From NCBI GenBank assembly GCA_963783175.1, contig CAWANG010000035.1, positions 62,772 to 126,771 of the forward strand: a DNA stretch of 64,000 bases. The letters are read 5' to 3'. The position numbers were made by a program, and so were the translations under genes. Source of the stretch: an uncultured Alphaproteobacteria bacterium (GTDB lineage Bacteria > Pseudomonadota > Alphaproteobacteria > Rhizobiales > Beijerinckiaceae). How positions within the stretch are numbered: the stretch's first letter is position 1; each line of letters starts with the position of its first letter. Of this stretch, positions 1,128-12,757 are shown one piece after another. The notes under the pieces were generated by a model, which was not told the origin of the DNA, searched no databases, and was given only the letters and a program-made list of their open reading frames with translations.

Positions 1128-1212
1128 TGGTGCCCCTAGCCGGAATCGAACCAGCACTCCTTGCGGAATCCGATTTTGAGTCGGACGCGTCTACCAGTTC
1201 CGCCATAGGGGC
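1128..1212 (-). tRNA. tRNA-Leu (anticodon CAA)
   Basis: Reverse complement GCCCCTATGGCGGAACTGGTAGACGCGTCCGACTCAAAATCGGATTCCGCAAGGAGTGCTGGTTCGATTCCGGCTAGGGGCACCA: 85 nt, TCCGA/TCGGA anticodon stem with CAA, long variable arm, GGTTCGATTCC T-arm, encoded CCA. Confidence 0.97.
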
Positions 1213-1388: not shown

Positions 1389-1970
1389 ATGTTCGACTCG
1401 CTCTACCCCCAACTCAAAGCGCTTGCCGAGGGTCCGCGTGCGGAAGGCGCCCTGGCCGCGGTCGCCTTCGCCGAGAGCTCGTTCTTTCCCGTTCCGCCCG
1501 ACGTCCTGCTCGCCCCGATGGCGCTCGCCAAACCCGCACGCGCGTGGCGATATGCGCTCATCGCCACCGTCGCCTCGGTCCTTGGCGGGACGCTCGGCTA
1601 CGCCATCGGCGCCATGCTCTACGACACGGTCGGGCAGTGGCTCGTCAACCTCTACGGCTACGGGGCGAAAGTGGAGGCGCTGAAGCAGACCTACGCGCAA
1701 TGGGGCTGGCTAGTGATCCTCGTCAAGGGCTTGACGCCGATCCCCTACAAGCTGGTGACGATCGTGAGCGGCCTGCTCGGCTATAACTTCCCGCTGTTCG
1801 TCGCGTTGTCGATCGTGACTCGGGGGGCGCGGTTCTTCATGGTCGCGGGCGCCCTTCACTGGTTCGGCGAACCGCTGCGCGTGGCGATGGAGCGCAATTT
1901 CGCCGCGGTTCTCGGCGGATTCGCCGCGCTGGTCGTCGCCGGCTTCGTGATCGCGATCAAGGTCTTCTGA
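1389..1970 (+). CDS. YqaA/DedA-family membrane protein
   Basis: AFAESSFFPVPPDVLLAPM and GLTPIPYKLVTI motifs; start moved to ATG 1389. Confidence 0.9.
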   Translation: MFDSLYPQLKALAEGPRAEGALAAVAFAESSFFPVPPDVLLAPMALAKPARAWRYALIATVASVLGGTLGYAIGAMLYDTVGQWLVNLYGYGAKVEALKQTYAQWGWLVILVKGLTPIPYKLVTIVSGLLGYNFPLFVALSIVTRGARFFMVAGALHWFGEPLRVAMERNFAAVLGGFAALVVAGFVIAIKVF

Positions 1971-1997
1971 TGAGAGACACCCGAGCCGCTCAATCCT

Positions 1998-2108
1998 TGT
2001 CATGCACGCGAAGGCGGGCGTCCAGGGGAACCGCCGCTGCAGCCTGCGATGTCGTCGAGACCGCTCTCTCCCTTGCGCCTCCGGATTCCCGCGTTCGCGC
2101 GAGTGACA
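1998..2108. repeat. REP-like imperfect palindromic element of the alphaproteobacterial GTCAT...ATGAC type
   Basis: Arm tgtcatgcacgcgaaggcgggcgtccagg is an imperfect inverted repeat of ccggattcccgcgttcgcgcgagtgaca; intergenic. Confidence 0.7.
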
Positions 2109-2142
2109 GTAGCCCCCCGGGGGTGGCCACGCGGTTCTTCCG

Positions 2143-2643
2143 ATGACGCTCGCCGAGATCGTCCTGCCGCCGTCGCCAGCGGCGAGGGCGCTCTTGATCG
2201 CCGCCGCGTCGCTCGCGATCCTCGCCGCGGTCTGGATTTTTCAGGGGCTCGGCTATCAGCCCTGCGAACTCTGCCTGACCCAGCGCTATGCCTTCTACGT
2301 CGCCGCTCCGCTCGCCGTCTTGACTGCCTTTGCCGCGAGCAGCCCGGCCCGATGCGTGGCGCGGGCCGGGTTCGCGTTGCTCACGGCGGCCTTCATCGCC
2401 AACGCCGCGCTGGCCGCCTATCATGTCGGGGTCGAATACCACTGGTGGGCGGGACCTACCGCCTGCACCGGCGGCCTGGCCGGATCGCTCGACGTCAACG
2501 ACCTCGCGAAGGCGCTCGATTCGGTCAAGGTCGTGCGCTGCGACGAAGTCCAGCTGCGGATCGCCGGACTGTCGCTTGCCGGCTGGAACGTTCTGGCCAG
2601 CGCCGCGCTCGCCGTCTACGCGGCGATTGCCGCGCGCCTTTAA
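2143..2643 (+). CDS. dsbB: Disulfide bond formation protein B
   Basis: QPCELCLTQR CxxC motif, YHVGVEYHWWAGPTAC, VVRCDE and hydrophobic helices. Confidence 0.9.
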   Translation: MTLAEIVLPPSPAARALLIAAASLAILAAVWIFQGLGYQPCELCLTQRYAFYVAAPLAVLTAFAASSPARCVARAGFALLTAAFIANAALAAYHVGVEYHWWAGPTACTGGLAGSLDVNDLAKALDSVKVVRCDEVQLRIAGLSLAGWNVLASAALAVYAAIAARL

Positions 2644-2913
2644 GCGTCAAAACTCAATCGGCGCAAACAGACGCCGCGGCCGCTTCCGGCATACAAGGTC
2701 CGCGAGCGAAACTTGGTGTCTGCGACAAGCGCTGATTCGATCATGTAGGCCGAAAAGCGTGGTCCTGCCCAAAGGTTTAGACCAAGAGACCTGACCACTT
2801 TTTTGGTAAGGCGGCGCGTTGAGCTGCCGGAAGAATAACGACGCGTCCAACGCCTGGCTTAGTCTGGCCTACCGCTGAGTTGCGAAAGCGACGCTTCGGG
2901 CGCGACCTCGCTC

Positions 2914-4047
2914 CTAAGCCGCAGCCTCGAATGGGACGTCGCCGGCTTCGGCAACCAGCGCCCTTGCAATGCGTTCGCCAGCGTCACCAAGGCCGAAGGG
3001 ATTTGCTTTGGTAAGCAGTTGACGTTCGTCGGAACAAGTCAGCTCGCGCACTCCTTCGACGATGGCGCTGTAGTCCGAGCCGACGAGTCGTCCGAATCCA
3101 GCCTCAACCACCTCGGGCCGCTCTGTAGTGTCGCGGGTAATCAGGATTTGCAGTCCAAGGGTCGGAGCTTCCTCCTGGATGCCGCCAGAGTCGCTCACGA
3201 CGCACCATGCGCGGGACATGAGATGCACGAAGTCTAGGTATTGAAGCGGCGGCAGAAGATGCACATTCGGCGCGTTCCCGAGGATGTCGAAGACTTCCTT
3301 CCTCACATCGGGGTTCAGGTGCACTGGCAACGCAATAACCTTATCGCCATCTTCCCCGATTGTCCGCAGCGCGCGCAGCACGTTGCGCAGCGGTTCGCCG
3401 ATATTCTCGCGGCGATGAGTAGTGGCGAGCACAAGCTTCTTATCCGTTGGCAGCATCGCCAGCGCCGGTTCAATCGGTCGGTAGTCTGACGTCAGACGGT
3501 CACGAGCATAGAGCAGCGCATCAACCACGGTGTTGCCGACTTCCCTAATTGTCGTTTCAGGCACATTCTCGCTGCGCAGATTTAGGGCGGCTTGCGCGGT
3601 TGGAGCGAAGTGCAAGGCGGCCGCCAGAGTGATGACTCGACGGTTGAACTCCTCCGGCCAAGGCGATCCGAGATCGCCCGTCCGCAGCCCCGCCTCAACG
3701 TGAGCAACCGGCACCCTGCAAAAGAAGCCAGCCATCCCTGCAGCGAGTGCAGTCGCAGTGTCTCCCTGCACGACCACCCAGTCGTACCGCTCGCGTCGTA
3801 GGACTTGTTCGACCTGCCGGGTCATTTCGCCGACCTTGCCTCCGAGTCCGGGTTCCTGCATGACGCGTTCGCCAGCCGCAAAAGTCACGGGTATCTCAAA
3901 AAGATCCAGAAGGCCGGCCGCAAGTTCCTGATGTTGGCCGGTCCAGAATACGTCCATCGTTACGCCGGGCGTCCTCTGCAGAGCCCGGCAGACGGGCCCC
4001 AGCTTGATGATTTCGGGTCGGGTGCCAACTGCTATGAGTACGTTCAC
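2914..4047 (-). CDS. wecB: UDP-N-acetylglucosamine 2-epimerase (non-hydrolysing)
   Basis: GTRPEIIK, VQGDT, HVEAGLRT, PWPEEFNR, TTHRREN, SDSGGIQEEAP motifs. Confidence 0.95.
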   Translation of the reverse strand: MNVLIAVGTRPEIIKLGPVCRALQRTPGVTMDVFWTGQHQELAAGLLDLFEIPVTFAAGERVMQEPGLGGKVGEMTRQVEQVLRRERYDWVVVQGDTATALAAGMAGFFCRVPVAHVEAGLRTGDLGSPWPEEFNRRVITLAAALHFAPTAQAALNLRSENVPETTIREVGNTVVDALLYARDRLTSDYRPIEPALAMLPTDKKLVLATTHRRENIGEPLRNVLRALRTIGEDGDKVIALPVHLNPDVRKEVFDILGNAPNVHLLPPLQYLDFVHLMSRAWCVVSDSGGIQEEAPTLGLQILITRDTTERPEVVEAGFGRLVGSDYSAIVEGVRELTCSDERQLLTKANPFGLGDAGERIARALVAEAGDVPFEAAA

Positions 4048-4060
4048 GGAACTACCTCCT

Positions 4061-5410
4061 TCATCTTGTCGCGGTTAAGAAGTCTTCGGGGAGTTCGTGG
4101 GCGGTTTTCGACCACACGATTGGCCGCGTCGCGAAGGCGGACTCTCCGAGGAAGGTTTTCCACGCGCGCCAGACCGCGGCCATGTTCACGTAAAGAGCAA
4201 CCGGCCAGCGCAGCGCTATGCCGAGCGGCTCATAATAGCCATACACACGATGGCAGGCGTCGAGCCGCACGAAATAGCGCAGCGCCAGAAACCCGAGGTT
4301 GATGCCGAGTGAGACCGACAGCAGATCCTGAACCTCTGGCGAAGCCATAGCCGGGTCGATCACTCCGAAAAAAACCAGCGCCAGGAAGATGAGCGATATC
4401 GGCGGCAGGAAACTGGTGAGGATGCCCTTGCGATCTCGCATAAAGAAGTAGCGATCCCACACATCGCCCTCCCATCCGAGCTTGCGTGTCGCCTCAAAGT
4501 TGATGCCGTAGACCCATCGGGTCTTCTGCTTGATCGAAGCCGCCAGTGATTTCGGGAAGAACTCTCGCGTGGCGACGTGATCGAGCCCATGTTCTTCTTG
4601 GGAGGAAACTGCCGCAAAAATGGCCTTAAAACCAGCGCGCTTTGCCTCGACGCCAAGGATGTAGTCCTCAGTGACACACCCAGTCATCAGCACATTGCCG
4701 CGCGTGCGTACAAAGTGCTCGATGAGACGTCTTGTCATGCACGTGCCGACCCCGGCCGACGGGATCGTGGCGCCCAATGCATGCCGCACGATCATTTCCC
4801 GGGTATGGCGTTCGGCAAACTCATCCATATAAGTCGCCGCGACCATTGAGCGGTGGGCGGATTTAAGCGAGAAAACCGGTACCTGGATAAAGTCGTGATC
4901 CGCCGCATGGGCTGCGTAGACTTCGAACGTACGCGGATCGATTACGTCCTCGCTGTCGTGCAGGACGGCGAGGTCGGGCGCGTCCGGCGCGCCATAGACC
5001 TGCCGAAACATCTCGTTGAGCAATTGACCCTTGGATGTGGGGCCCGCTAGCGTGTTGACGATCACTCGGACACGGTCCGGATGCTTCTTGGCGAGCTCCA
5101 TCGCCACGTCACAGGTCGCGGTGTCGTTTGGATAAACGCCAAGGTAGAGCCGCACCGTGGGAGTTGTGATGCGCGCCAGGTTGCCCTCGACCATCCGGTG
5201 GAGCACGTCCTCTTCGCGCCAGTTGGCGACGAACACTCCGATGCTCGGCTTATCGGTTTTCGAGGCGTGTTCGCTAGCAAACGATGAATGGGCGATCCCG
5301 AACGCCAACGCGTCGATCAGAGCGTCGTCGAAAGAGGAAAGGTTGATCAGCGCGCTCGTGCAGAGCATCGAGTTAATCAGGAAATCGTTCACGATGCTAA
5401 TCCCGGCCAA
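4061..5410 (-). CDS. GT2 glycosyltransferase, NfrB-like catalytic domain without the C-terminal MshEN domain
   Basis: GPTSKGQLLN, LHDSEDV, YMDEFAE, PSAGVG, TEDY, REFFP...KQKTRW..GI (QxxRW), RDRKG, C-terminal TM helices and WSKTAH; protein stops at 449 aa. Confidence 0.85.
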   Translation of the reverse strand: MAGISIVNDFLINSMLCTSALINLSSFDDALIDALAFGIAHSSFASEHASKTDKPSIGVFVANWREEDVLHRMVEGNLARITTPTVRLYLGVYPNDTATCDVAMELAKKHPDRVRVIVNTLAGPTSKGQLLNEMFRQVYGAPDAPDLAVLHDSEDVIDPRTFEVYAAHAADHDFIQVPVFSLKSAHRSMVAATYMDEFAERHTREMIVRHALGATIPSAGVGTCMTRRLIEHFVRTRGNVLMTGCVTEDYILGVEAKRAGFKAIFAAVSSQEEHGLDHVATREFFPKSLAASIKQKTRWVYGINFEATRKLGWEGDVWDRYFFMRDRKGILTSFLPPISLIFLALVFFGVIDPAMASPEVQDLLSVSLGINLGFLALRYFVRLDACHRVYGYYEPLGIALRWPVALYVNMAAVWRAWKTFLGESAFATRPIVWSKTAHELPEDFLTATR

Positions 5411-6557
5411 AGGATTTTTGGCTTGACGCCGTAGACCCTTCAGTCAGACGAATTGGCTCCTTCGCTTTCGACCCCTCTAGGGTCGCGGCGCCAAAGAGGC
5501 GACCCAGCGCGGAGCGAGTCTGGTCAAGCGCGGATTCGATCACGCCGACACGACAATCGGTCGCGAAACACGTCGTTATCTGGACGCGTTGATCCACCGG
5601 GAGCTCATTGGAATCCAGCAGGTCGATACGCACCAATCGTCCGCGCTCAAGCATCCGGTTGGGCGCCTGAAGGTCGTTCGGCAGAGTCTGGGCAAGAGGC
5701 AGGACACGGTCGATTCGGCCATTCAAAACCGCGTTTCGTGTCCTGACGCCAACATTCTGCCCCTCAGAGACCTCGAAGACATAGGCGTCCGGGACATAGG
5801 CGAGCACGAACCTCTTCCCAGTGAAGATGTCCGCGATGCCGCCGGTTCCCGTCGACACCGCCTGGCCGACGGCCGCAACAGACCCCCCGATGTCGCCGCT
5901 GACCGGGGCGTAGAGGGCCCCATCTTCGTAGGTGCTCATCAACTCGTCATAGGCAGTAGCGGCCTGCGCGAGCGCAGCGCGGTCAGCGTCCAATTCGACG
6001 GACAAAGACCCCTGCTCCGCCTGCAAGCTCGCGGCATGTTCGCGAGCCAAAAGGGAAGCCGACGTCATTTCTTGCACCGACTTGTTGAGTGTGAGGCCGC
6101 TCGCCCGCGCCTGATCGAGGTCGTTCAAAAAGGCGGCGGTTTGCGTCGCGCTCGACTTGGCCAGTGGGAGCGTGTCGGCAATGACCTGTCGTCGAGCTTG
6201 GAGTTCCCCGATCTTGCCCATCAGGCGCGCCTTTTCGGCGGCGAGGTCTGCAAGCGTCCGGCCGATCGCGACGGATTTCACAATCGCGATCTTTTGGCCC
6301 TTCTCCACGTGGTCGCCTGGGCGCACCAGGACCTGCGCCACTCGTCCCTCGAAGGCGGGCGCGACAGCCACTCGGTCGCGCATAACATAGCCATCGGCGC
6401 GCAACAGGACGCCCGAGAGGCCTCCTTGCAAATAGAAGACCGTACCGCCAATTGCGGAAACGAGCAGGCCGCCGTACAGCGCCAAGCGCTGAATACGCTT
6501 CCAGCTGACGCGACTGGCGCGCAGCTCTCCAGAATTGCGAATAGTCTGGTCAGTCAT
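5397..6557 (-). CDS. HlyD/membrane-fusion-family periplasmic adaptor
   Basis: Single N-terminal TM, lipoyl half motif VAPAFEGRVAQVLVRPGDHVEKGQKIA, coiled-coil hairpin, second half LYAPVSG; overlaps the GT2 start by 14 bp. Confidence 0.85.
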   Translation of the reverse strand: MTDQTIRNSGELRASRVSWKRIQRLALYGGLLVSAIGGTVFYLQGGLSGVLLRADGYVMRDRVAVAPAFEGRVAQVLVRPGDHVEKGQKIAIVKSVAIGRTLADLAAEKARLMGKIGELQARRQVIADTLPLAKSSATQTAAFLNDLDQARASGLTLNKSVQEMTSASLLAREHAASLQAEQGSLSVELDADRAALAQAATAYDELMSTYEDGALYAPVSGDIGGSVAAVGQAVSTGTGGIADIFTGKRFVLAYVPDAYVFEVSEGQNVGVRTRNAVLNGRIDRVLPLAQTLPNDLQAPNRMLERGRLVRIDLLDSNELPVDQRVQITTCFATDCRVGVIESALDQTRSALGRLFGAATLEGSKAKEPIRLTEGSTASSQKSFGRD

Positions 6558-6683
6558 TTCAGTCCCGCCGTCGTAGAGTTCGAAAACCGCTTGTCGACAG
6601 CTCCGCTGGACGGTCGCGACCTAAGATGGTTCCCGTTGGTTGCACGAGTCGCTGTGGCAGCGCTCGCAAGATGACAGTCACCT

Positions 6684-6699
6684 TGCAGGGTTCGTGCCA
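6684..6699 (-). promoter_or_regulatory. Sigma-54 (-24/-12) promoter for the adaptor-GT2-wecB operon
   Basis: Minus strand TGGCACGAACCCTGCA versus consensus TGGCACG-N4-TTGCW, correct GG-N10-GC spacing, about 125 bp upstream of ATG 6557. Confidence 0.7.
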
Positions 6700-6989
6700 C
6701 GGATGGGACGCCCTTTGCCAAAGCCGCGTCATGCTCACCGTCGCTCGGCCCGAACGCCGCGCGAAACAGGGCCGCTTCGTGCCGTTTCGTTTAAGGTTAT
6801 GGGGGACGAGCGGCTCGGATAAGGCCGGCATCTTGCATTGCGATTATTGCCAAATGCGAATCGTTATTGGCGAAAAGCGACATTCGAACGTCAGCCGAAA
6901 GCGTCTGGTATTAAATCGACTGAGACCGCCCTAGTGAGGAGGCACACGCCGTTGCCCGCGGATTGAGGCGAGAAAGAGAAGGCGCGACG

Positions 6990-7265
6990 ATTGCTTTCGA
7001 TAATCAGAATATCGTGCTATTGTGCCTCATATCGAATGGATCGGAATCGCTGCCCGGGCGCGAGAGGAGCGCCGCGCAGTATATTTTTTAACAGCGAGCG
7101 GTTCGCCTGATGGGGATTTAGGGCCTAAGCCCTTGAGAACTTTGAATCGGCGGCAGGAAAAGGCATTTGGATTCCCTTCCGCTGGATTTGGATTCTCTTC
7201 CGCTGGGTTTTGATTTCCTTCCGCCCGAATTTGGATTCCCTTCCTTCGGCTTGGAAACCTTTCCG
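6990..7265 (-). repeat. Dispersed ~250 bp element, copy C (five ~21-bp units, core, second block)
   Basis: ttgga/tttga at 7167, 7188, 7209, 7231, 7251; core (minus) aatccaaatgccttttcctgccgccgattcaaagttctcaagggcttaggcc; second block (minus) cacaatagcacgatattctgattatcgaaag. Confidence 0.8.
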
Positions 7266-7274
7266 GCGGCCCGC

Positions 7275-8753
7275 TCAGTCCGGCGCCTTGCCGAACGGGA
7301 TGCCGTTGACCATCAGCGACCGGTCGGGGTTGAGTTCGACCAGCCAGCTGAGGCTGCCGTCGCTTTCGCTTTTTCCCAGCCCCTTGGCCAAGGCGAGGGC
7401 GGGCATGACCTTGGCGGCGATGTCGGGCCCCAGGGCCTTGACTGCCGCCATCGTCTTGTCGAAACCGCGCATGTGAACGGTCAATGCGCCGGTAGGTTTG
7501 CGGTGATCGAAACGAATGACGCCGGTAAAGTCGGCGTCGACCGCGGGCGCGATGACATGCGACGGCGCAATTTCGACCCGGACCGGACCAGCGCTCAATA
7601 GGGCCGCCTCAACCTTGTCGGCGTCCTGGTCAGTCATCACATCGCCGTCGCCCTGCAAGTTCAGGGCGTCGATCCACGTATTCGCCGCCGCGGTCAGGTC
7701 GATGCCTTTGACCGTCGCCGCCACGTCGATCTTCGACGGCGTCAAGTCGCCTCCTCCGGGCGGGAGCAGCCCGACCGGCAAGCTCAGTCCCTCAGCCGAG
7801 ACCCCCAGGCTGATCGAGCTCTGCGGCCCCGCGTTGGCCGCGCCGAGCTGATATTTCGCGTCTGTCAGGGCAATCGCGCCAATCGACGCGGCGACGAAGG
7901 TCTTCTGTGCTTCAATGCCTTCGGCGAACCTGAGGCCGGGGGCGGTCAGCTCTTTGAGCAGGCCCTTCAACTCCGCCTCGTGGGCGGCAAGATCGGCGCG
8001 CGCCGGGTGAGAAGCCACCAGGCCCCATAGCTCGAACGCCTTGAGGCTTTTGAACCCGTCGACGCCGACATCGATCAGCGCCTTGTCCGACCGCCCGCTG
8101 ACGTTGACCGGAGCGTCATTCCCCCCAACCCCGGTCGCTTTGAACCCGATGTCGGAAATGTCCTCCTTCACCACCGTTGAAACCGAGCCGTCGGTGCCGA
8201 GGGTGGTCGTGACGTTCTCCTGAACGGCGCCGAATTCGGCCGCCTGCTCGAGCTTTGGCGTATGAATCAGCAGAGTTCCCTTGTCCACGCTCGCCGAACC
8301 GCCGAGAAGCCAGGCGATCGCCGGACTGATCAGCGCGGTCGAGCGGAAATTCGTCAGTTCGACGCTGCCGTTCGCTCCCTCGGAATGAAAAACGATGCGG
8401 GGAAGCGAGTCCATCATGAGCCGCCAATTGCCGTCATCCTGTTCGACGGCCTTGTAGACGATGGTCGCCGGATCGTATGACGCGCCCGTCTCCTGGAGGA
8501 GCGCGTTGAGCGCGCTGAGGTCGGCCGAGATGAGATAGTCGGCGCCCTCCGGCGTCACCGTCACGAGGGGGGACGCCCCGGCCTGCGCCGCGGGCAAATA
8601 ATTGGCGATCAGGGTTCTGAGCGCGTCCGCGCCCTCGGGCGTGGCTGGCCGGTCGGCCGCAAGCGCGGGAATCGCCCACAGCGCCGCCGCGGCCAGCGGC
8701 GCGAGCGCGAAACGCCGACGCGAACGGCTCGGGCGCAGTCGTATGGAGGGCAT
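7275..8753 (-). CDS. Hypothetical exported protein
   Basis: Long ORF with host-like codon usage and signal-peptide-like N terminus (RRRFALAPLAAAALWAIPALAA); alternative TTG start at 8783. Confidence 0.8.
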   Translation of the reverse strand: MPSIRLRPSRSRRRFALAPLAAAALWAIPALAADRPATPEGADALRTLIANYLPAAQAGASPLVTVTPEGADYLISADLSALNALLQETGASYDPATIVYKAVEQDDGNWRLMMDSLPRIVFHSEGANGSVELTNFRSTALISPAIAWLLGGSASVDKGTLLIHTPKLEQAAEFGAVQENVTTTLGTDGSVSTVVKEDISDIGFKATGVGGNDAPVNVSGRSDKALIDVGVDGFKSLKAFELWGLVASHPARADLAAHEAELKGLLKELTAPGLRFAEGIEAQKTFVAASIGAIALTDAKYQLGAANAGPQSSISLGVSAEGLSLPVGLLPPGGGDLTPSKIDVAATVKGIDLTAAANTWIDALNLQGDGDVMTDQDADKVEAALLSAGPVRVEIAPSHVIAPAVDADFTGVIRFDHRKPTGALTVHMRGFDKTMAAVKALGPDIAAKVMPALALAKGLGKSESDGSLSWLVELNPDRSLMVNGIPFGKAPD

Positions 8754-8873
8754 TAGGCGGCCTATTTGGTTCGGCGAGGACAATCCGAGTTTGCGCGAGC
8801 CTACTCCGATTCTCCGCCGCCGCGCGACAAATACCGCCTATGCGCGTTCGGCGGCGGCTCGTCGGCGTCGCTC

Positions 8874-9779
8874 TCAGCGAGCCGGCAATGCGGCCGGCGA
8901 ATGGCTTCTCGGCGCTTGCGCCTTGGCGACGCCGGCCTTCACCGCCTCCTGCACCTTTTCGAACGCGCGCACCTCGATCTGCCGCACGCGCTCGCGCGAC
9001 ACGCCAAATTCGGCCGACAGCTCCTCGAGCGTAATCGGCTCCTCGGCGAGCCGCCGGGCCTCGAAAATGCGCCGCTCGCGCGGGTTGAGGACGGTCAACG
9101 CGCTGCGCAGCGCGCCCATGCGGGCGTCCGATTCCTCGCGGTCGGCAAGTTGAGATTCCTGATCGGCGCTTTCATCGACGAGCCAGTCCTGCCACTCGCC
9201 TTCGCCGCCGTCGCGCAGCGGCGCATTGAGCGAGGCGTCGCCGCCGAGGCGCCGGTTCATGTCAATGACGTCCTGCTTGCCGACGCCAAGCCGCTTCGAG
9301 ATCGATTCGACCTGATCGTCGCGCATGTCGCCTTCCTCGAGCGCCGAAATCCGGCTCTTGGCCTTGCGCAAATTGAAGAACAGCTTCTTCTGGCTGGCCG
9401 TGGTGCCCATCTTCACCAGCGACCACGAGCGCAGGATGTATTCCTGGATTGACGCGCGAATCCACCACATGGCGTAAGTCGCGAGCTTGAAGCCCTTGTC
9501 CGGCTCGAAGCGCTTGACCGCCTGCATCAGGCCGACGTTGCCCTCGGAAATCACCTCGCCGATCGGCAGACCGTAGCCGCGATAGCCCATGGCGATCTTG
9601 GCCACCAGCCGCAAATGCGAGGTGACGAGCTTGTGCGCAGCCTCGCGATCGCCGTGCTCGCGCCAGCGCTTGGCGAGCATGTATTCCTCTTGCGGCTCCA
9701 GCATCGGGAACCGCTTGATCTCTTGCAAATAGCGAGCAAGTCCCGATTCGCCCGCAATGATGGGAAGCGATGCGGCCAT
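8874..9779 (-). CDS. rpoH: RNA polymerase sigma-32 factor
   Basis: RpoH box QKKLFFNLRKAK, region 2 LVTSHLRLVAKIAMGYRGYGL, region 4 GVSRERVRQIE. Confidence 0.97.
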   Translation of the reverse strand: MAASLPIIAGESGLARYLQEIKRFPMLEPQEEYMLAKRWREHGDREAAHKLVTSHLRLVAKIAMGYRGYGLPIGEVISEGNVGLMQAVKRFEPDKGFKLATYAMWWIRASIQEYILRSWSLVKMGTTASQKKLFFNLRKAKSRISALEEGDMRDDQVESISKRLGVGKQDVIDMNRRLGGDASLNAPLRDGGEGEWQDWLVDESADQESQLADREESDARMGALRSALTVLNPRERRIFEARRLAEEPITLEELSAEFGVSRERVRQIEVRAFEKVQEAVKAGVAKAQAPRSHSPAALPAR

Positions 9780-9943
9780 GTTTTCCTCTGATGGGAGCCC
9801 GGTTCCATGCCGTCTCCGTCGGCGCTATGGCCGGATGGACATATTGTGGTCGAGCAAGCGTGGCCGAATAAGGGCCGAGCCTAGTCAGCTATTCGCAGCC
9901 AATATGAAATTGTTTCAGCGGCGCGGAGGCCGAACAAAGGGCG

Positions 9944-11032
9944 TCAGACTGCCGACGCGGCTCGTAACGCATTGAGCAGATGCGAAAAATCTTCCGGCGG
10001 CGAACTCTCGAAGCGGAGTTTCTCGCCAGTGGCCGGATGTTCGAAACCCAATACCGAAGCATGCAAAGCTTGGCGGCCGAGTTCGGCCAGCGCGGCCTTG
10101 GCGGCCTCGCCGAGACGGGCCGCCTTGGTCTTGAACCCCGCGCCGTAGACCGAATCACCCAGGAGCGGATGACCGCTCGAGGCCATGTGGACGCGAATCT
10201 GATGGGTCCGTCCGGTCTCGAGCCGGCAGGCGATGAGGCTCGCCGAACCGAAAGCCTCCTTAAGCCGCCAATGGGTCGTGGCCTGGCGGCCGCGCTCCTC
10301 GGCGATCGCCATTTTTTCCCGATGGCGCGGATCACGGCCGATCGGCGCCGCGACCTTCCCGGCGATCGCGTCGAAGCGGCCCCAAACGAGCGCCAAATAT
10401 TCGCGCTCGAGCGAGCCGGTGCGGCCGTGGTCGGCGAAGAGCTCGGAGAGCCCCCGATGCGCCGCATCCGTCTTGGCGACGACGAGCATCCCCGAGGTGT
10501 CCTTGTCGAGCCGATGCACGATTCCCGGCCGCCTGACCCCGCCGACGCCTGAGAGGCTCGCCCCGCAGTGGCGGATCAACGCGTTGACCAGTGTGCCGGC
10601 CGGATGTCCCGGCGCCGGATGGACAACGAGCCCGGCCGGCTTGTCGATCACGATCAGATGCTCGTCCTCGTAAACGACGGCAAGCGGCAGATCTTCGCCG
10701 GCGATCGGCAATTCCTCCGCGGACGGCGCTTCAAAGGCGATGCGCGCGCCCTCGACGAGCCGCAGCGAGGGATCGCGCGCAACCTGCCCGTCGACGCTCA
10801 CTTCGCCGGCCTCGATCAGGGCCTTGAGCCGGGTGCGCGACAGCGCGACGCGGCGCACGGCCGCCGCGCCGCCCAAGAAACGGTCGAGCCGCTCGCCCGC
10901 GCCCGCCGCATCGACGTCGAAGACCTGCGGCCCTGACGGCGCGGCGAGGGGCTGGGGAGCCGTTGCGGGCGGCGGCGCGAGTTCGGGCTCGCCTGCGGCG
11001 CTCCAGGCGCGGCGTTTGGCCTTGGCGTTCAT
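9944..11032 (-). CDS. RluA-family pseudouridine synthase (RluD-like)
   Basis: S4 domain, DKPAGLVVHP, IVHRLDKDTSG, LETGRTHQIRVH. Confidence 0.93.
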   Translation of the reverse strand: MNAKAKRRAWSAAGEPELAPPPATAPQPLAAPSGPQVFDVDAAGAGERLDRFLGGAAAVRRVALSRTRLKALIEAGEVSVDGQVARDPSLRLVEGARIAFEAPSAEELPIAGEDLPLAVVYEDEHLIVIDKPAGLVVHPAPGHPAGTLVNALIRHCGASLSGVGGVRRPGIVHRLDKDTSGMLVVAKTDAAHRGLSELFADHGRTGSLEREYLALVWGRFDAIAGKVAAPIGRDPRHREKMAIAEERGRQATTHWRLKEAFGSASLIACRLETGRTHQIRVHMASSGHPLLGDSVYGAGFKTKAARLGEAAKAALAELGRQALHASVLGFEHPATGEKLRFESSPPEDFSHLLNALRAASAV

Positions 11033-12018
11033 GCCCGCTCCCGCCGGCGCGCCCGTACCGCGGCCTCGGCGGCGGGCGGGGCCACGAGCGCTCCGAGCGC
11101 GGCGACGATCGCCTCCACGTCCGGACGTGGCCTGGCTTCGTGGGCGTCAAGACCGCGCCGCATCGCCGCCACATGGGCCGGCGTGGCGCCGCAACAGCCG
11201 CCGATGATGCTGGCGCCGCAATCGACGGCGAGCCCTGCGTAGGTCGCCATGAGCTCCGGAGTGCCGGAATAGTGGATATGCGCCCCGTGCCATTGCGGCA
11301 CGCCGGCATTGGCCTTGGCAATGAGCGGCGCGCCCGGTCGCGCCGCGCTCATGGCGAGAGTCGCGGCCAAGAGATCGGAGGCGCCGACGCCGCAATTCGC
11401 GCCATAGGCTACCGGCGCCGGCTCGAACGCTTCGACCAGGGCGCCGAACGCGGCGGGCGCGAGGCCCATCATCGTGCGGCCGGCGGTGTCGAAGCTCGCG
11501 GTGATCGTATAGGGGAAGCCGCACTTGGCCGCCGCCCGCGCCGCGGCGCGGATTTCCTCGGCCGCCGACATGGTCTCGATCCAGGCGACGTCGGCGCCGC
11601 CTTCGCGCAGGCCTTCGATCTGTTCGGAGAAGACGTCGACCGCCTCGTCTTCGCTCAACGGTCCGAGCGGAGCGATGAGGTCGCCGGTCGGTCCGACCGA
11701 TCCGGCGACGACGACGGGTCGCCCGGCGCTGTCGGCGACGTTGCGAGCGTTTTGGGCGGCGAGACGGTTGAGTTCGCGCGCCCGGGCCTCGAGGCCGTGC
11801 AGCATCAGTCGGCGACGATTGGCGCCGAAGCTGTTGGTCAGAATGATGTCGGCGCCGGCATCGACGAAAGCCCGATGCAGGGTCTGGGTTCGGTCGGGAT
11901 GGACCGCGTTCCAAAGCTCCGGGCTGTCGCCGGAGGTCAGTCCCATGGCGAAGAGGTTGGTGCCGGTCGCGCCGTCGGCAAGCAGCGGCCGGCCTTCGGT
12001 GAGTAGGGTTTGCAACAT
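11029..12018 (-). CDS. Homocysteine S-methyltransferase family protein (betaine-homocysteine methyltransferase-like)
   Basis: LLADGATGTNL, ILTNSFGAN, GSVGPTG, GANCGVG, IAKANAG, IIGGCCG; start set to ATG 12018. Confidence 0.9.
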   Translation of the reverse strand: MLQTLLTEGRPLLADGATGTNLFAMGLTSGDSPELWNAVHPDRTQTLHRAFVDAGADIILTNSFGANRRRLMLHGLEARARELNRLAAQNARNVADSAGRPVVVAGSVGPTGDLIAPLGPLSEDEAVDVFSEQIEGLREGGADVAWIETMSAAEEIRAAARAAAKCGFPYTITASFDTAGRTMMGLAPAAFGALVEAFEPAPVAYGANCGVGASDLLAATLAMSAARPGAPLIAKANAGVPQWHGAHIHYSGTPELMATYAGLAVDCGASIIGGCCGATPAHVAAMRRGLDAHEARPRPDVEAIVAALGALVAPPAAEAAVRARRRERA

Positions 12019-12097
12019 GTCGGGCTCTCTTGGCGCTTGGCGCGGCGCAACTACCCGCGAGGTAAGCGCCTTTGCGGCTCCGCGCAAGGCGACGAAC

Positions 12098-12757
12098 TCA
12101 AGCGGCGGCCCGGATTGCCTTGATGTTGTCGGAATAGCTCTTGGGATCGCCTTCGAATACGGCCGAGCCCGCAACGAACACGTTCGCGCCGGCCCGCGCC
12201 AGAAGCGGCGCAGTCTCCGCCGCCACGCCGCCATCGACCTCGATCATGATGTTGCGGTCGCCGACCATGCGCTTCACCCGCGCGATCTTGTCGAGCATCG
12301 CCGCAATGAACGCCTGGCCGCCAAAGCCCGGATTGACGGTCATGACGAGGATAGTGTCGAGCCGGTCGAGCACATATTCGATCGCGCTCTCCGGCGTTCC
12401 AGGATTGATCGCTACGCCCGCCTTCTTGCCGAGCCTGCGGATTTCCTGCAGCGAACGGTCGAGATGCTTCGTCGCTTCCGCATGGATCGTGATGTGATCG
12501 GCGCCCGCCTTGGCGAAGGCTTCGAGATAGGGATCGCAAGGTTCGATCATCAGGTGGCAGTCGAAGGGCTTGTTGGTATGCGGCCGCAATGCCGCAACAA
12601 CCGGCGGGCCGAAGGTGATGTTGGGGACGAAATGGCCGTCCATCACATCGAGATGGATCCAGTCGGCGCCGGCCTCGGCGACCGCGCGCACCTCCTCGCC
12701 GAGCCTGGCGAAATCCGCCGACAGAATTGACGGCGCCATGATCACCGCGTTGGTCAT
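12098..12757 (-). CDS. rpe: Ribulose-phosphate 3-epimerase
   Basis: [36 protein letters not shown]; RBS AAGGAG before ATG 12757. Confidence 0.95.

Follow-up and report, generated by a model that had tools for sequence, protein, structure and literature searches.

We analysed a 64,000-nucleotide stretch (the window) of contig CAWANG010000035.1 (assembly GCA_963783175.1), which comes from an uncultured alphaproteobacterium of the family Beijerinckiaceae, and focus here on three co-directional genes of its minus strand that together span about 3.6 kb. They encode a periplasmic adaptor of the membrane-fusion protein (MFP) type (5397..6557, 386 aa), an NfrB-family processive polysaccharide synthase that belongs to glycosyltransferase (GT) family 2 (GT2; 4061..5410, 449 aa in the longest open reading frame (ORF)), and WecB, a non-hydrolysing epimerase acting at carbon 2 of uridine diphosphate (UDP)-N-acetylglucosamine (GlcNAc) (2914..4047, 377 aa). 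We propose, with a probability of roughly 0.6, that this triad is an accessory operon for a synthase-dependent exopolysaccharide based on N-acetylmannosamine (ManNAc), which is exported through an MFP tube and TolC. Two more limited claims are highly probable: the three genes work together as a unit, and the GT is an NfrB-type processive synthase that WecB feeds. An earlier note on this DNA had read the locus as a ManNAc-containing polymer pathway, and that reading is supported by the conservation of the triad, the processive nature of the GT, the single WecB copy of the genome and the family-wide linkage of WecB to the synthase.

In the mechanism that we envisage, WecB would convert UDP-GlcNAc to UDP-ManNAc, which the inner-membrane NfrB-family GT2 would polymerise processively while threading the growing chain across the membrane, the product being most simply a beta-linked poly-ManNAc. 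The single-pass MFP would assemble around the periplasmic exit of the synthase and dock with its alpha-hairpin onto a TolC-family channel encoded elsewhere in the genome, which has three TolC-family genes at other loci, such that the polymer would cross the periplasm and the outer membrane through a pump-like tube. Adaptor and TolC would thereby replace two E. coli proteins, namely the tetratricopeptide repeat (TPR)/beta-barrel porin NfrA and YbcH.

The triad is conserved well beyond the window. A scan of one genome per species, in which homologues of the three proteins were located by tblastn and all flanking ORFs were clustered, yielded 80 loci with relatives of the synthase, 37 of them close and 43 distant. 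Among the close relatives (58-81% synthase identity), the adaptor stands beside the synthase in 31 of 37 and WecB in 34 of 37, and the loci that lack one or the other are mostly on contigs that end inside or just past WecB. Because it recurs in 31 of the 37 close relatives, the grouping is far beyond chance, and the conservation on which the earlier proposal depended is thus borne out. The close relatives belong to Xanthobacteraceae, Bradyrhizobium, Rhodoplanes, Pseudolabrys, Microvirga, Hyphomicrobium, Rhodomicrobium and Beijerinckiaceae; close triad homologues (64-70% identity) also occur in one Terriglobia and one Gemmatimonas metagenome-assembled genome (MAG; loci L008 and L020), which reflects either inter-phylum transfer or a binning error. 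Candidate carriers that can be cultured are Bradyrhizobium diazoefficiens SZCCT0423, Methylobacterium nodulans, Methylobacterium sp. 4-46 and Hyphomicrobium isolates. Of at least three gene orders, GT-WecB-MFP is the usual one, with MFP-GT-WecB found in the window and in loci L002 and L003, and WecB-MFP-GT in L031. The pairwise distance matrices of the three proteins correlate with r = 0.88-0.92 over 24 complete loci, the adaptor diverging fastest, which indicates that the three genes have travelled together. No other gene is conserved across the close loci, be it an ABC, MFS or RND transporter gene or a porin gene. A plasmid collection searched for the triad returned only distant NfrA-type relatives of about 32% identity.

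The assignment of the synthase is supported by profiles, alignment and a structural model. The protein matches Pfam Glyco_tranf_2_3 (E 1e-62) and, with 719.2 bits against a cut-off of 504, the NCBIfam model NF011306 (PRK14716.1-4, 'glycosyl transferase family protein', NfrB-related), its residues 10-449 covering positions 4-442 of the 442 of the model. The NfrB model NF008411 is matched with 226 bits against a cut-off of 1170, over model positions 58-473 of 723 only, and a BLASTP comparison with NfrB of E. coli K-12 gave 28% identity (E 1e-54, residues 16-441 on 20-478). The DxD (HDSEDV), TED (VTEDY) and QxxRW (QKTRW) motifs align residue for residue with the NfrB motifs holding D169, D267 and W330, which confirms the earlier description of a GT2 with processive-synthase motifs in an NfrB-like context. 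In addition, a C-terminal WxKTxHxxP motif is common to the window synthase and E. coli NfrB and is invariant among the aligned synthases. The window synthase terminates 8 residues past this motif, at the point where the NfrB linker to the MshEN domain starts; accordingly, its alignment reaches residue 478 of the 745 of NfrB, and neither an MshEN domain, which binds cyclic di-GMP (c-di-GMP), nor any extra Pfam domain was found on it.

The predicted model of the synthase (pLDDT 89.3, pTM 0.89, from a 36-sequence alignment) comprises a long N-terminal transmembrane (TM) helix, a GT-A domain, interface helices with the QxxRW motif, and two long C-terminal TM helices. A sequence search of solved structures with the synthase found nothing. 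The top Foldseek matches were cellulose synthase BcsA (5ej1, E 1e-13, TM-score 0.64 on the query), PcManGT, which is a minimal cellulose-synthase-like mannosyltransferase, and hyaluronan synthase. As such, both the homology to NfrB and the BcsA/hyaluronan-synthase-like model group the GT with the processive synthases. It is very improbable, in our view, that the adjacency of the three genes is meaningless, with an adaptor that serves an ordinary efflux pump, or with a GT that is a non-processive lipid-carrier enzyme of the GtrB/ArnC type. The family-level matches of the adaptor are indeed efflux adaptors, and non-processive GT2 enzymes such as GtrB do appear in the fold-search list, far down at E ~1e-6, but no pump gene is conserved beside the adaptor, the genes stay linked in three different orders and diverge in a correlated way, and the QxxRW motif, the interface helices and the BcsA-like top matches mark a processive synthase.

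Within the NfrB family, the MFP-linked synthases stand apart. In a maximum-likelihood tree of 78 synthases they form one clade (SH-aLRT 100, stem length 1.43), and E. coli NfrB falls in a different one (support 96) together with Burkholderiales and Methylocystis loci. The Burkholderiales loci of that clade read wecB - 749-aa protein - GT - NfrA-like porin (Pfam NfrA_C) and the Methylocystis loci TPR protein - wecB - GT, while in the Bdellovibrionota branch the partners are DUF2334, GH113 and WecB. An NfrA-type porin was found in none of the 37 close loci. The earlier note had found neither of the partners NfrA and YbcH beside the triad, and their absence holds genome-wide by profile search: neither NfrA_C (PF13283; E. 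coli control positive) nor the YbcH family DUF4434 (PF14488, which YbcH itself matches) has a match in the window's genome, which is 93% complete. DUF2334 was likewise found nowhere in that genome. We also considered whether the adaptor might be a diverged YbcH, and rejected this given that the two proteins show no similarity.

Compared with the Nfr system of E. coli (NfrB-NfrA-YbcH with WecB/NfrC, responsible for the phage N4 glycan receptor, NGR), the triad thus shares a homologous synthase with the same catalytic motifs and WxKTxHxxP, a linkage to WecB, and a tight operon (PMC8669469, PMC8669472). It differs in that its synthase has no MshEN and belongs to a separate clade, recognised by NF011306 and not by NF008411, and in that an MFP is present instead of NfrA and YbcH. 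Our literature searches retrieved no description of an MFP-NfrB-WecB system, and PMC8669469 and PMC8669472 mention no MFP variant; the suggestion that the system is undescribed therefore stands for the combination, both parents of which, Nfr and synthase-MFP-TolC, are known.

Other partner sets of this synthase family came to light in the same survey. The WOR-3 locus L053 (2142-9551; also L051, L060 and L064) carries a Rieske protein, a 687-aa NfrB-like GT, a BcsB-like protein, a TPR protein and a DUF2334 protein in this order, and is a hybrid of an Nfr-type synthase and a Bcs-type periplasmic partner. A same-order genome (G002, locus L095, G002:C1:1968000-1982000, 4548-12716) holds DUF2334 - NfrB-like GT (992 aa) - WecB and no MFP, with GH113, a BcsS-like outer-membrane protein and a GNAT-like gene placed divergently, which makes it a further set of partners for this kind of synthase. 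The approximately 540-aa C-terminal extension of its GT is of low complexity and unrelated to the adaptor, so that a fusion of adaptor and synthase was discarded.

The presence of WecB in the triad points to the precursor of the polymer. The protein scores 378.2 bits against TIGR00236 (cut-off 210) and 81.8 bits against the model of the hydrolysing NeuC (cut-off 236). It is encoded by the sole Epimerase_2 (PF02350) gene of the window's genome, and such a gene is missing from four of five high-quality same-genus genomes, all without the synthase; two of those four nevertheless retain a WecG-family GT gene. Given the sole copy and the relatives that have WecG and no WecB, WecB is most simply explained as having arrived with the triad and as serving it, in line with the earlier designation of a dedicated WecB. 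In E. coli, NfrB requires WecB-made UDP-ManNAc (PMC8669469, PMC8669472), and in hosts that lack any other wecB, nfrB homologues bring one along (PMC8669469). The linkage across the branches of the NfrB family fits this published rule, as WecB, which adjoins the synthase also in 33 of 43 distant relatives, is the only partner to recur from one branch to the next.

Further neighbours of the synthase are in keeping with a polymer of amino sugars in manno configuration. A GlmM-like mutase adjoins five triad loci and DUF2334 proteins occur in four. Genes of GH113, a beta-mannanase family, accompany GT and WecB in Bdellovibrionota and in G002. It seems quite unlikely that the polymer is something other than a ManNAc homopolymer, built from UDP-GlcNAc or from two alternating sugars, with WecB contributing no more than a primer or a portion of the chain. 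The two-substrate hyaluronan synthase among the structural neighbours would suit such a product, and the DUF2334 partners hint at polymer modification in some loci; against this, WecB stays with the synthase across every NfrB-family branch, the triad has no other precursor gene, and the GH113 partners point to a manno-configured backbone. We thus favour ManNAc as the putative monomer.

The third component is an HlyD-like adaptor, as the earlier note had it, according to its Pfam profiles (HlyD_3 and HlyD_D23 for the barrel-sandwich, and a lipoyl-like domain) and its EmrA/MacA-like model; in NCBIfam, it matches RND_mfp and EmrA below their cut-offs. The AlphaFold model (pLDDT 80, from a 25-sequence alignment) shows one TM helix (~19-44), a lipoyl domain, an alpha-hairpin (96-152 / 158-213) of about 57 + 56 residues and a beta-barrel, and the membrane-proximal domain is absent from it. 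A sequence search of solved structures with the adaptor gave marginal matches only, and the top Foldseek matches of its model were EmrA in EmrAB-TolC (8zal, E 1e-16) and MacA in MacAB-TolC. EmrA and MacA are single-pass adaptors that dock TolC via their hairpin tips. Two features of the adaptor family deserve mention in their own right: a short cytoplasmic motif, L..S...W.[KR]LR[KR], at residues 12-24 (L12, S15, W19 and a basic cluster), and a periplasmic C-x4-C pair near the C-terminus (TTCFATDC, residues 330-335), conserved in the 25-homologue alignment. We know of no counterpart of either in drug-pump adaptors.

The nearest plasmid-borne relatives of the adaptor (30-33% identity, E 1e-24 to 1e-38) lie directly after a membrane GT2 synthase, which suggests that the adaptor belongs to an MFP lineage specialised for polysaccharide synthases rather than for drug pumps. 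These relatives are part of TackOD1 - GT2 - MFP operons on alphaproteobacterial plasmids, which share with the triad the placement of the adaptor and differ from it in that their GT2 is chitin-synthase/PgaC-like and unrelated to the window synthase (BLASTP E 0.13), in the TackOD1 protein, and in having no WecB. Such operons were seen in Phyllobacterium, Methylocystis iwaonis and Roseibium (L091 3525-6969, L092 3237-7098 + 8175-9629, L093 2779-6996) and constitute a second, apparently uncharacterised synthase-plus-adaptor system. In Roseibium, the TackOD1 protein is fused to a receiver domain and the locus includes a diguanylate cyclase; in Methylocystis iwaonis, a TolC gene is located two genes downstream.

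The pairing of a processive inner-membrane GT2 with a co-encoded HlyD-type adaptor, which the triad shows in 31 of 37 loci, has precedents in BgsBA-TolC and in the cyanobacterial Xcs. In Sinorhizobium meliloti, the HlyD-type BgsB and the synthase BgsA need an unlinked tolC for the production of a mixed-linkage beta-glucan (PMC13438883), and this system resembles ours in its core of HlyD-type adaptor and processive GT2, in its host, which is also a member of the Hyphomicrobiales, and in a TolC that is encoded elsewhere (PMC13438883). However, BgsA is cellulose-synthase-like, uses UDP-glucose and is activated by c-di-GMP, whereas the window synthase is of the NfrB type, is accompanied by a WecB of its own and shows no site recognisable as one for c-di-GMP; a plasmid-record search with the adaptor returned no Sinorhizobium record, and hence no close relationship to BgsB was detected. 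In the cellulose synthase system of Thermosynechococcus (Xcs), HlyD-like and TolC-like partners replace BcsB and BcsC, as PMC8892547 summarises from Maeda 2018. Xcs shares with the triad the efflux-pump-like adaptor/TolC tandem, which is the architecture that we propose, and differs in synthase family, substrate (cellulose) and phylum, and in having genetic evidence behind it. The earlier note had been reminded of Alg8/Alg44, and this likeness holds for the pairing of an inner-membrane GT2 with a single-pass protein that has a MexA/HlyD-like periplasmic part. Alg44, however, has a cytoplasmic PilZ receptor for c-di-GMP and goes with the AlgK/AlgE porin, whereas the window adaptor is without PilZ and has a long, EmrA-like hairpin of the TolC-docking type, so that BgsBA-TolC and Xcs are the closer precedents.

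Several points weigh against the proposed pathway. The WecB product could in principle also be used by a WecG/TagA-family GT, one of which is encoded elsewhere in the window's genome, and the NGR glycan of E. coli is itself chemically uncharacterised (PMC8669472). The synthase model has about three TM helices plus interface helices, and a complete translocation channel may need oligomers or the TM helix of the adaptor. Every named MFP family scores below its curated cut-off on the adaptor. Finally, a TolC gene is adjacent in only one of the 31 triad loci; the requirement for TolC is thus an analogy, the putative exit being suggested by the fold of the adaptor, by the precedents above and by one adjacent gene.

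The scarcity of adjacent TolC genes also suits another explanation, namely that the adaptor is an Alg44/BcsB-like co-polymerase or scaffold that works without TolC, the polymer staying cell-associated or periplasmic or leaving through another porin. This is possible but on balance unlikely. The membrane-proximal domain that RND and ABC adaptors have is missing from this one, and a few related loci have other outer-membrane candidates, such as BcsS in G002, both of which would be in keeping with a scaffold; yet the long two-helix hairpin and the matches to EmrA and MacA in complex with TolC are TolC-docking features, and conservation of a porin gene was not seen among the 31 loci. Moreover, pumps often have their TolC gene at a separate locus, and the tolC that BgsBA depends on is unlinked as well. 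Export through the adaptor and TolC therefore remains our preferred reading. The single triad locus seen with an outer-membrane channel of its own is L010, from a Beijerinckiaceae MAG, where a TolC-family gene (Pfam OEP, E 2e-60) lies directly upstream of GT-WecB-MFP-DUF2334 on one strand (1896-9342).

The combination of an NfrB-family synthase with an efflux-type adaptor is conserved but patchily distributed. A TPR/beta-barrel porin, such as BcsC, PgaA, AlgE/AlgK, PelB or NfrA, is the usual outer-membrane part in descriptions of synthase-dependent exopolysaccharide systems; to our knowledge, an efflux-type adaptor together with TolC has been proposed in its place for two cases only, both of them cellulose-synthase-like. 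If our reading is true, the MFP-linked clade would extend the adaptor-and-TolC solution to a third, unrelated synthase family, and would indicate that an adaptor can stand in outright for NfrA and YbcH. Given its small size and its own precursor enzyme, the module could serve as a practical minimal system for studying what NfrB-type enzymes polymerise and how a polysaccharide passes through TolC, and for producing a ManNAc polymer heterologously. In ecological terms, the triad would then be an accessory surface trait, patchily distributed among Hyphomicrobiales from soil and plants, of the kind that could influence how biofilms behave or how susceptible the cells are to phages; here we speculate that the polymer may serve as a phage receptor or as a biofilm polymer. 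More tentatively, and with less than even confidence, we suggest that the triad is a self-contained, horizontally mobile and c-di-GMP-independent secretion module in which an NfrB-type poly-ManNAc synthase feeds straight into an EmrA-like adaptor tube and a housekeeping TolC, that synthase-MFP-TolC is a general, modular third export route beside TPR-porin and Wza, and that the adaptor belongs to a wider synthase-dedicated MFP lineage that also serves the TackOD1-GT2 operons.

With respect to regulation, no PilZ domain was matched on the adaptor, in which about 18-25 cytoplasmic residues precede the TM helix, and an Rfam scan of 2500-7400, including the leader, found neither a riboswitch (for c-di-GMP or other) nor a known RNA at E <= 1. 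Since MshEN is also missing from the synthase, the triad appears to have no recognisable c-di-GMP input, unlike NfrB, BgsA, BcsA and Alg44, and the lack of MshEN would leave control to transcription or to another partner. The presumed promoter and leader of the operon is the 717-bp non-coding region upstream of the adaptor gene (6558..7274, minus strand), a scan of which gave no sigma-70 consensus promoter. About 60 nt past the WecB stop, a pattern scan picked up a weak terminator-like hairpin (2840..2854, minus strand) that may mark the end of the operon; it is a mere candidate, as the region has no more hits of this kind than expected from shuffling.

The genes are closely packed, with 13 bp between synthase and WecB (4048-4060). 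If the longest ORFs are taken, those of adaptor and synthase overlap by 14 bp (5397-5410). However, synthase homologues in a large protein database are almost all 443 aa long, and a GTG that is preceded by a GGGA box lies 18 nt inside the synthase ORF, downstream of its TTG start. The real start is therefore probably the GTG at 5392, which gives a protein of 443 aa that begins 4 nt past the adaptor stop, and the overlap probably does not exist. The coupling of the adaptor and synthase genes is tight under either start codon. As such, the tight coupling described earlier stands with regard to the 13-bp gap and the packing, and the overlap, being start-codon dependent, probably does not.

The triad is accessory and lies in a variable region. 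The synthase was found in none of 18 same-genus genomes, and NF011306 scored above its cut-off in none of 12 same-family genomes and in 6 of 401 same-order genomes (an even sample of 400 plus the window's own, which is counted). Synteny with three same-genus genomes spans 7270-11100 of the window, with a 502-aa orphan ORF, rpoH and rluD, and breaks at 7270-7279. To the left of the break are a repeat element, the triad, two small ORFs, a tRNA-Leu(CAA) and a P4-type integrase, none of which was found at the corresponding place in the three relatives, nor was the neighbouring DNA of the relatives found here. The triad module appears to move between genomes.

Among the neighbouring ORFs, no further partner was recognised. 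The 502-aa ORF (7275-8783, minus strand), which has no Pfam match at E <= 0.01 and is conserved beside rpoH in same-genus genomes, was rejected because it belongs to the core genes of the genus (relatives without the triad have it at 61-71% identity) and is absent from other triad loci; the downstream 228-aa and DedA ORFs were likewise set aside, as they were not found in other triad loci. The tRNA-Leu(CAA) gene (1128-1212, minus strand) points with its 3' end towards the P4-type integrase (3-1157; Arm-DNA-bind_3, Phage_int_M and Phage_integrase domains), which runs off the left end of the window, and a genomic island probably extends to the left of the window. Since this orientation puts the island on the far side of the tRNA gene, the triad is not part of it. 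Finally, the upstream region of the operon holds a dispersed repeat (~6990-7265) with at least four GGAAGGGAATCCAAAT-like units at a spacing of about 21 bp, right after the stop of the 502-aa ORF, and the DNA synteny with the three same-genus genomes ends exactly at the edge of this element.

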